From the sequence record PP925838.1: a DNA stretch of 46,491 nt, one strand, 5' to 3'. Below, one piece after another: positions 2,676-3,773 of this stretch. Within the stretch, counting starts at the first letter, position 1. Every line of letters begins with the position of its first letter. Below the pieces are notes generated by a model, which made no database searches, was not told the origin of the DNA, and saw only the letters and a program-made list of their open reading frames with translations. Origin of the DNA: Escherichia phage Chlobot. The translations under genes were made by a program, and so were the position numbers.

Positions 2676-3773
2676 ATGAAAAAATTAACAGTGGCAATTT
2701 CTGCTGTAGCTGCATCAGTACTGATGGCGATGTCTGCTCAGGCAGCTGAAATTTATAATAAAGACAGTAACAAGCTGGATCTGTACGGGAAAGTTAATGC
2801 TAAGCACTATTTCTCCTCTAATGATGCAGATGATGGTGATACTACTTATGCCCGTCTTGGCTTCAAAGGTGAAACCCAAATCAACGATCAACTGACTGGT
2901 TTCGGTCAGTGGGAATATGAATTCAAAGGCAACCGCGCTGAATCTCAAGGTTCCTCCAAAGATAAAACCCGTCTTGCCTTCGCTGGCCTGAAATTCGGTG
3001 ACTACGGCTCCATCGATTACGGCCGTAACTACGGTGTAGCATACGACATCGGTGCGTGGACTGACGTCCTGCCAGAATTCGGTGGTGACACTTGGACTCA
3101 AACCGACGTGTTCATGACTCAACGTGCAACTGGTGTTGCAACCTATCGTAACAACGACTTCTTTGGTCTGGTTGATGGTCTGAATTTTGCTGCTCAGTAC
3201 CAAGGCAAAAACGATCGTAGCGATTTCGATAACTACACTGAAGGTAACGGTGATGGCTTCGGTTTCTCTGCTACCTATGAATACGAAGGATTCGGTATCG
3301 GTGCAACTTATGCGAAATCTGATCGTACCGACACTCAAGTTAATGCAGGGAAAGTTCTTCCTGAAGTATTTGCTTCCGGTAAAAATGCAGAAGTTTGGGC
3401 CGCAGGTCTGAAATATGACGCTAACAACATTTACCTGGCCACTACCTATTCTGAAACCCAGAATATGACTGTATTTGCTGATCACTTCGTTGCTAATAAA
3501 GCCCAAAACTTCGAAGCTGTTGCACAATATCAGTTCGATTTCGGTCTGCGTCCGTCCGTTGCTTACCTGCAATCTAAAGGTAAGGATCTTGGAGTATGGG
3601 GCGATCAGGACTTAGTCAAATATGTTGATGTAGGTGCAACCTATTACTTCAACAAAAATATGTCTACTTTCGTTGATTACAAAATCAACCTGCTTGACAA
3701 AAATGACTTCACTAAAGCACTCGGTGTAAGCACTGATGACATCGTTGCTGTAGGTATGGTTTACCAGTTCTAA
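2676..3773 (+). CDS. Outer-membrane general porin of the OmpC/OmpF/NmpC/Lc family (phage-borne)
   Basis: Signal peptide [23 protein letters not shown]; classic porin N-terminus [17 protein letters not shown] and C-terminal ...VGMVYQF; lies between Q and the lysis genes on the opposite strand, as nmpC does in DLP12 and lc in PA-2. Confidence 0.9.

Follow-up and report, generated by a model that had tools for sequence, protein, structure and literature searches.

The 46,491-nucleotide DNA of Escherichia phage Chlobot (PP925838.1), analysed here over its full length and called the window, carries an intact porin gene of the nmpC/lc type between the gene for the late antiterminator Q and the holin gene, on the strand opposite to both. 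A preliminary description had placed this porin inside the late operon and had concluded that Q-antiterminated late transcription must cross it in antisense. The analysis led to a different picture: since a homolog of the late promoter pR' is found between the porin start and the holin, and the Q-porin spacer has no promoter-like site, the Q-dependent late transcript most likely starts on the holin side of the porin and diverges from it.

Genomic Context and Distribution of the Porin Gene

The window represents the whole genome of a lambdoid phage, in permuted form. Lambda-like replication, immunity and recombination genes are followed by int and then by tail, head and terminase genes, the portion from int onwards occupying 13-38 kb; portal, N and cI are present, and no tRNA gene was found in the window. 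N is of the lambda type, and the pR operon lies on the minus strand with Q as its last gene. The chromosomal DLP12 locus was considered as an origin, given that 2.5 kb match E. coli 21F61 at 100% and that the prophage of this strain is at argU/intD; it was excluded, since the window has no tRNA gene and does have head and tail genes. An Rfam search of positions 1-18000 at gathering thresholds returned the lambda cIII thermoregulator only, leaving the porin region empty.

Gene calls and Pfam searches confirmed the position that had been assigned to the porin, between Q and the holin and on the opposite strand. The Q gene (3962..4345, minus strand) codes for a protein of 127 aa of the QuuD, or 82/933W, type (PF06530, E 4e-53). 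The holin gene (1888..2103, minus strand), the first of the late lysis cassette, is of the EssD/S21 type (PF04971 Phage_holin_2_1, E 2e-35), and its homolog is annotated as essD or holin S in matching records; the other minus-strand neighbours identified by Pfam are DUF1327/YdfR, lysozyme and Rz. Q is 81% identical to Q of H-19B, and identities with the Stx-phage Q family are 77-81%. Q homologs align over amino acids 1-120 and diverge after the sequence ...RLEMD; codon ~120 of Q thus seems to mark a recombination junction.

The Q-porin-holin arrangement is very common. Out of 5426 complete E. coli genomes, 2396 contain the module at a query coverage of at least 80%, as do 35 sequenced phages, 434 and PA-2 among them. 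Among the IMG/VR loci with an identical Q, 76 out of 80 have the order Q, antisense porin and pR' module (97.6-100% identity), with S found after the pR' module in 74 of those 76; the remaining four loci stop short of the pR' module. The search for related loci based on Q yielded only Q sequences with 100% identity, and the diversity described below came from a scan for the pR' motif.

Identity and Intactness of the Porin Gene

The porin gene (2676..3773, plus strand) consists of 365 codons plus the stop and was identified by Pfam Porin_1 and by its identity to nmpC/Lc. Its ATG at 2676, preceded by AAAGGG at 2664-2669, is the start found in related annotated records; a longer reading frame beginning at 2616 has no backing in those records. 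The first 23 amino acids (2676-2744, plus strand; ...SAQA/AEIYNKD) correspond to the signal peptide annotated in the PA-2 record, and the mature protein is composed of 342 aa, with ...VGMVYQF at the C-terminus. Pfam Porin_1 (PF00267) covers residues 29-365, corresponding to positions 1-337 of the 337 of the model (E 1.5e-156); in NCBIfam, the cut-off of the OmpC subfamily is exceeded (529.6 vs 484) and the equivalog cut-offs of PhoE and OmpF are not reached. Matches with E < 1e-108 were obtained for 48 porin chains in the PDB, the best being OmpC/OmpK36 (E ~1e-137), and the alignments with the mature N-termini of OmpC, OmpK36, PhoE and OmpF all begin at residue 24. Identity with K-12 OmpC is 63%, from which the product is predicted to be a trimeric 16-stranded beta-barrel conducting small solutes; the L3 eyelet motif PEFGGD (LPEFGGD, residues 132-138) and the C-terminal aromatic beta-signal ...YQF are both present. 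The classification as a phage-borne porin of the NmpC/Lc type, already proposed in the preliminary description, is therefore borne out by Pfam, NCBIfam and the alignments with nmpC, Lc and OmpC.

Frameshifts or an IS insertion, which had been indicated as possible defects to be sought by closer alignment, were both absent from the aligned gene, whose frame is open over the 365 codons. Codons 1-346 are identical to those of K-12 nmpC at 346 positions out of 346, and also show 100% identity to the phage 434 porin; the IS5 target CTAA after codon 346 is empty in this copy. Over the last 19 codons there is a single difference from K-12, Met361 for Leu, in the last beta-strand, and 360 of the 365 amino acids are shared with Lc of phage PA-2. 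The gene is an intact nmpC/lc allele. It is extremely improbable that it represents a decayed remnant that gives no functional porin, like the IS5-interrupted copies of K-12 and phage 434. It is true that these closest laboratory references are disrupted after codon 346 and that residue 361, in the last beta-strand, is Met instead of Leu; however, this replacement is conservative, the 365 codons are uninterrupted and as many as in lc, the protein keeps its signal peptide, the PEFGGD eyelet and ...YQF at the C-terminus, and the promoter region is identical to the active one of K-12.

Expression Signals on Both Sides of the Porin

The region preceding the porin, 2104-2675, is AT-rich, with a GC content of 0.29-0.40 in segments of 300 bp vs 0.44-0.51 within the gene. 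The porin promoter region, PnmpC, corresponds to 2477..2675 on the plus strand (-199..-1 from the ATG) and ends with the SD sequence AAAGGG (2664-2669). It includes a candidate CRP site (~2548-2568), equivalent to the one annotated in the PA-2 record J02580, and TTGAAA (2594-2599) with GAATAT (2618-2623) could possibly represent the promoter core. The ~240 bp before the ATG are identical in the window, K-12 and phage 434, and 11% of the columns of the promoter block are variable among seven porin phages. In K-12, deletion of -199..-1 of nmpC abolishes promoter function, 5' RACE located the start site at a 'G', and CRP, OmpR, IHF, MprA and RyhB have been reported as regulators (PMC11677980). 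A consensus promoter scan called neither PnmpC nor pR', both being below threshold, and is therefore of little help in this region; since the upstream sequence is identical to the active PnmpC of K-12, the porin appears to have a promoter of its own.

It also appears to have its own terminator. Downstream of the gene, three hairpins had been described as terminators: the three hairpins are indeed present, but only the most distal has the U tract on the porin strand that is typical of canonical terminators. HP1 (3789-3822), which begins 16 nt past the porin stop, and HP2 (3824-3843), detected by folding, are tandem hairpins with a predicted stability of -35.1 kcal/mol on the plus strand and -40.0 on the minus strand (z ~-5.9 for 3771-3860; none of 200 shuffled sequences was as stable), and no U tract follows either of them on the porin strand. 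HP3 (GGGGCGT-TGCA-ACGCCCC, hairpin at 3911-3928) is followed by ATTTTTAATAATTTTT; the terminator scan and the fold both identify this element (3911..3944, plus strand), which is predicted to be the canonical intrinsic terminator of the porin transcript and ends 18 nt short of the Q stop codon. The difference of HP1 from K-12 is located in the loop, and those of HP3 from K-12 and 434 are in the loop only. Read on the minus strand, HP1 has a short U tract (CUUUUAG) behind it and may stop unmodified transcription leaving Q.

The AT-rich interval had been regarded as the upstream region of the porin; its base composition and the presence of the porin promoter agree with this view, but the interval does not belong exclusively to the porin, since pR', its terminator, the holin leader and a sigmaE-type promoter are also inside it and point away from the gene. 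The 572-bp porin-holin spacer is thus a compound control region, formed by the porin promoter, the sigmaE-type promoter and pR' with its terminator. The sigmaE-type motif, GAACT-N17-TCACT-N5-A (2627..2659, minus strand), is directed toward the holin and is unique in the window. Its start at 2627 coincides with the published '+1' of the DLP12 lysis operon, as reconstructed by mapping on K-12 the primers Pdlp12Fw/Rv, which are stated to span -121..+650 of that operon (PMC7918800 and its Table S1). This '+1' (window 2627) differs from the start predicted for pR' (2272), and the holin appears to be fed by more than one promoter.

The Putative Late Promoter pR' and Its Hairpin

The candidate pR' (2279..2307, minus strand) was recognized by homology to pR' of the Stx phages; it is formed by the -35 element GTTTAC (2307..2302), a 17-nt spacer and the -10 element TATGCT (2284..2279), matching just 8 of the 12 sigma70 consensus positions. 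The spacer contains CGTAAAAA, a candidate Q-binding element, and transcription is predicted to start at A2272/G2271. Within the pR' transcript, at positions ~+25 to +57, the terminator scan and the fold centroid indicate a candidate tR' (2215..2248, minus strand), in which the hairpin AAACCCGC-CGTCGA-GCGGGTTT is followed by TTCCATTTTTT; the stem occupies 2248..2227, the T run continues to ~2215, and the holin ATG is at 2103. According to the terminator scan this hairpin is the sole intrinsic terminator between pR' and the holin, and a second terminator of the StxS type was not found in the window. The core motif of pR' is unique in the window.

A search with 2104-2330 of the minus strand retrieved the porin phages and ~280 Stx-phage records, the latter matching over 2225-2307 (query 24-106) at or just after Q. 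In the record of the Stx2 phage SC370 the matching segment is annotated as 'pR' putative late promoter' (494-522) and is followed by a rho-independent terminator (555-577). When the window is aligned with K-12, PA-2, PhiR55_1, SC370 and H-19B, the homology begins exactly at the -35 GTTTAC and stops at the T run; the shared elements are CGTAAAAA in the spacer, the -10 (TATGCT or TATCAT), the invariant TAAGAGTGGTTAC and the GC hairpin. In SC370, H-19B and Sakai Sp5 the pR' homolog directly abuts Q. In those Sakai Stx phages that have a 144-aa Q, the distance between the pR' start and the 3' end of tR' is 258 nt according to dRNA-seq and Term-seq (PMC7547250); when the same distance is counted backwards in Sakai Sp5 and SC370, beginning at the T run that belongs to the second terminator, AAGA/G is reached, 7-8 nt past the -10, and this agreement indicates that the annotated Stx pR' is the mapped promoter. 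The major 3' end mapped in Stx phages is at +258 and not at the hairpin homologous to 2248..2227 (PMC7547250).

Seven porin phages, diverging by as much as 10%, were compared, and no other non-coding block is as conserved as the pR' module, in which two columns out of 93 are variable, with one out of 29 in pR' itself; in the adjacent spacer, 2308-2476, 24% of the columns are variable. The second CRP site of the PA-2 record (~2252-2272 in the window) was rejected as the main cause of the conservation of the initially transcribed part of pR', its left half being equally conserved in Stx phages devoid of the porin, where the TCACA half-site is not. A full-text literature search for the motif AGAGTGGTTAC returned primers only. 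In Lambda_ev087, Q is 85% identical, yet the sequence directly after it is different; thus, Q similarity alone does not fix the promoter type. On the basis of the homology described above, Q of this phage would act on 2279-2307.

Proposed Scheme and Sources of Antisense Transcription

We consider it quite likely that, PnmpC drives porin transcription in the lysogen, with termination at HP3, and that after induction the late transcript starts from pR' and diverges from the porin. In lysogenic cells the phage repressor would shut off pR, and hence Q, and the porin would be produced and inserted in the outer membrane; its plus-strand transcription would depend on a dedicated sigma70 promoter, located in the ~200 bp before the ATG, activated by CRP and modulated by OmpR, IHF, MprA and RyhB as in K-12, and would end at HP3. 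Upon induction, Q produced from the pR operon would act in trans at pR' (2307..2279) and allow RNA polymerase to pass the hairpin at 2248..2227 and to transcribe S, R, Rz and the structural genes; the Q-modified transcript would begin ~400 bp upstream of the porin ATG and head away from the gene. Antisense transcription across the porin would then have a single source, pR-initiated and N-modified readthrough past Q during lytic growth. In this scheme we infer the promoter used by Q, the terminator efficiencies and the expression of the porin in lysogens of this phage.

The arrangement of the genes can also be read in another way, with pR' located immediately after Q as in lambda, so that the porin would be embedded in the late transcript and its expression opposed by antisense RNA during lytic growth. 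The porin does lie between Q and S on the opposite strand, and pR' directly follows Q both in lambda and in Stx phages; moreover, a sequence after the Q stop, GTTTAC-TAAAAAT (~3933-3945, minus strand), resembles the -35 element and the spacer of pR', and Lambda_ev087 has a reverse-oriented Blc gene after the terminator that follows Q, indicating that embedded antisense morons may exist. However, the GTTTAC-like remnant is not followed by a -10, and no promoter-like site was identified on the minus strand in 3774-3961 by the consensus scan, which also missed PnmpC and pR'. Furthermore, the 188-bp spacer from the Q stop to the porin stop was found only in phages carrying the porin (35 records), a complete and highly conserved pR' homolog with its hairpin is present beyond the porin, pointing away from it, and other phages have the same promoter module after unrelated inserts. 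An embedded porin, as assumed in the preliminary description, is thus judged improbable.

A different route to antisense RNA is provided by the early promoter. RNA polymerases initiated at pR and modified by N could cross HP3, HP2, HP1 and then the porin in antisense, dampening its expression in the delayed-early phase; this possibility is compatible with the divergent late transcript proposed above and would partly rescue the earlier prediction of antisense opposition. In lambda, complexes modified by N are not stopped by intrinsic terminators, and a low level of transcription by them extends into the late region. The window has a lambda-type N and a minus-strand pR operon that ends in Q, and between Q and the porin, termination on the minus strand is signalled by HP1 alone, with its tract of four U. 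Conversely, when transcription arriving from Q was blocked in K-12 by an rrnB terminator in the nmpC/quuD spacer, IS5 transposition was not appreciably affected (PMC11677980), but the prophage used in that experiment was uninduced, defective and lacking N function. We regard such N-dependent readthrough as a plausible addition to the scheme, our judgement leaning slightly against it.

A Proposed Accessory Slot between Q and pR'

The region between Q and pR' was compared by scanning IMG/VR for the core motif of pR', which was found in at least 119 loci; among those listed, 102 carry upstream, on the same strand, a Q of the same family. The length of the slot was measured from Q codon 120 to the -35 element. 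Among the matches listed, the slot is 61 nt long in 18 loci, where Q abuts pR' with nothing between them; in 65 loci it measures ~1.66-1.68 kb and contains a reverse-oriented porin, and in six loci it is ~600 bp long and is occupied by reverse-oriented lipoprotein genes of low GC content, of two unrelated kinds. Slots of 0.8-1.1 kb, in 11 loci among the matches listed, contain forward ORFs, most of which look like the ORF6N type (one representative was confirmed by Pfam), with a DnaD_N domain instead in one case (L144); the other two loci among the matches listed are singletons of 514 bp and 3036 bp. Thus the porin cassette is present or absent at one site among related phages in the IMG/VR matches listed. 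PhiR55_1, a sequenced phage belonging to the lipoprotein class, shares Q and the pR' module with the window, but the reverse-oriented gene between them is a different one.

As far as the sequences indicate, the porin is one of several cassettes able to occupy the Q-pR' junction. Its presence or absence at this site, together with its own putative promoter and terminator, qualifies it as an autonomous moron, apparently inserted in a slot delimited by the 3' end of Q (codon ~120) and the -35 of pR'. A broader proposal can be advanced for phages with a Q of the 82/933W type, in which the Q-pR' junction would be a dedicated accessory slot: reverse-oriented envelope genes, such as the porin and at least two unrelated low-GC lipoproteins, would be insulated from late transcription and would share with pR' and a sigmaE-type promoter a divergent control region, a layout that could couple outer-membrane-protein load, the signal for sigmaE, to low-level expression of holin and endolysin in lysogens. 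We offer this proposal as a speculation, rather unlikely in its full extent; in the limited literature accessible to us no paper was found that describes the Q-pR' junction as such a slot.

Significance and Comparison with Known Systems

The nmpC/lc porin is already known, being annotated in PA-2, 434 and K-12. The case of a prophage that provides its host with a new major porin of the outer membrane is a classic illustration of lysogenic conversion and has been known since the 1970s and 1980s. With the module present in nearly half of the complete E. coli genomes, one more intact copy adds little; the added value is architectural, and consists in a porin that would occupy a reusable slot at the Q-pR' junction and would not be part of the Q-dependent late transcript. 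Gene order alone is a poor basis for predicting antisense silencing by late transcription, and annotators would do well to treat the 572 bp between porin and holin as a compound control region and not just as the porin upstream sequence.

The likeness to the lysogenic-conversion loci of DLP12 (nmpC) and PA-2 (lc), mentioned in the preliminary description, holds for gene, position and orientation. The lc gene of PA-2, as represented in its record (J02580; Blasband, Marcotte & Schnaitman 1986, cited in PMC11677980), matches the porin gene of the window in length and signal peptide and is likewise placed next to the lysis genes, in the same orientation. PA-2 and the window share 97% identity over the sequence preceding the gene, in which the CRP site is annotated, and over the spacer behind it; the differences of PA-2 are five amino acids, a 17-nt insertion in the holin leader and an extra T near the SD. 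The nmpC gene of the K-12 prophage DLP12 (b0553) and the porin gene of phage 434 have the same flanking genes as the window, quuD (Q) and essD (holin); however, IS5 interrupts both copies after codon 346, and their records list them as pseudogenes, whereas the copy in the window is uninterrupted. Furthermore, DLP12 is a decayed prophage at the argU site, while the window is a complete phage with head and tail genes. The chromosomal porins OmpC, PhoE and OmpF (Pfam Porin_1) belong to the same fold family; the phage porin is a distinct, phage-borne paralog, whose external loops are shorter than those of OmpC, as revealed by alignment gaps.

According to the moron concept of Hendrix and Juhala, lambda bor and lom are reportedly envelope genes expressed autonomously in lysogens. 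The porin resembles them in having its own putative promoter and terminator, in its expected expression from the prophage and in being present or absent among related phages; proteins and insertion sites are different. Finally, the Stx phages with a 144-aa Q (933W, H-19B, Sakai Sp5/Sp15) have a Q of the same family, a homologous pR' core and a homologous first hairpin, and stx/StxS and the porin are alike in being accessory genes in the Q-S interval. However, stx is in sense orientation, downstream of pR'/tR' and dependent on Q (PMC7547250, PMC6266700), whereas the porin is placed upstream of the putative pR', in reverse orientation and apparently under its own promoter.

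Variable cassettes between Q and pR'
In lambdoid phages with an 82/933W-type Q, the stretch extending from about codon 120 of Q to the -35 element of pR', the candidate late promoter, carries cassettes that vary among the IMG/VR loci retrieved by a pR' core-motif scan (L096-L214). Among the matches listed, 65 loci have a reverse porin, 11 have inserts of 0.8-1.1 kb with forward ORFs, mostly of the ORF6N type with one DnaD_N-like exception, 6 have low-GC lipoproteins in reverse orientation, of two unrelated kinds (148 and 159 aa), and 2 are other singletons; at a further 18 the junction is empty and Q is followed by pR' with no insert. 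Pfam searches returned no match for the 148- and 159-aa lipoproteins. A junction cassette is also present in a sequenced phage, PhiR55_1 (L008:2951-3397).

Directly past the Q stop of the window, at about 3933..3945 on the minus strand, GTTTAC-TAAAAAT resembles the -35 element and spacer (GTTTACGATCGTAAAAAT) of the Stx-type pR'; a -10 element is absent downstream. Cassette insertion may have left this sequence behind as a relic of the original promoter next to Q, or it may have arisen by chance in AT-rich DNA.

Signals around the porin start and the holin leader
A sigmaE-like promoter motif, GAACT-N17-TCACT-N5-A, lies at 2627..2659 (minus strand), with its start at 2627; the "+1" published for the DLP12 lysis operon, whose position was reconstructed from primers in PMC7918800, falls on the same nucleotide. 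The likely porin start site lies back-to-back with it on the plus strand, at about 2629-2631, and the porin ATG is just some 49 nt away. The second "CRP site" of the 1986 PA-2 record corresponds to window 2252..2272 (minus strand) and covers nt 1-21 of the predicted pR' transcript (AGTGGTTACTTCGTCACACAG). Stx phages without porin keep the left half of the site; the right half (TCACA) is not conserved in them.

The holin 5' leader is polymorphic among porin-carrying phages for a 17-nt indel, CTGC(T/C)TTT(A)TTGCGATA, located between 2158 and 2159. The segment is present in PA-2, Perceval, PhiR34_1, PhiR29_1 and 2G7b; it is missing from the window, K-12, 434 and PhiR70_1. Elsewhere, a lambda cIII thermoregulator element (12610..12668, plus strand; Rfam RF01804, 88.5 bits) fits a lambda-like pL operon.

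Reverse genes and the late transcript
A 90-aa ORF (MDNSTISLQELLDCISRL...; 1301..1573, plus strand), labelled hypothetical in E. coli 21F61, gives a full-length match (E 1.6e-59) to phrog_2411, of unknown function. The ORF lies within the lysis cassette on the opposite strand, flanked by lysozyme (662..1195, minus strand) and ydfR (1539..1883, minus strand), whose 3' end it overlaps. In contrast to the porin, this ORF does run antisense to the late transcript.

In Lambda_ev087 (L007 2879-3559) Q is 85% identical and is directly followed on its 3' side by a different promoter-like region with a StxS-type terminator, after which comes the lipocalin gene blc in reverse orientation. If this promoter-like region is the pR' of Lambda_ev087, blc would be a real antisense moron within the late transcript.
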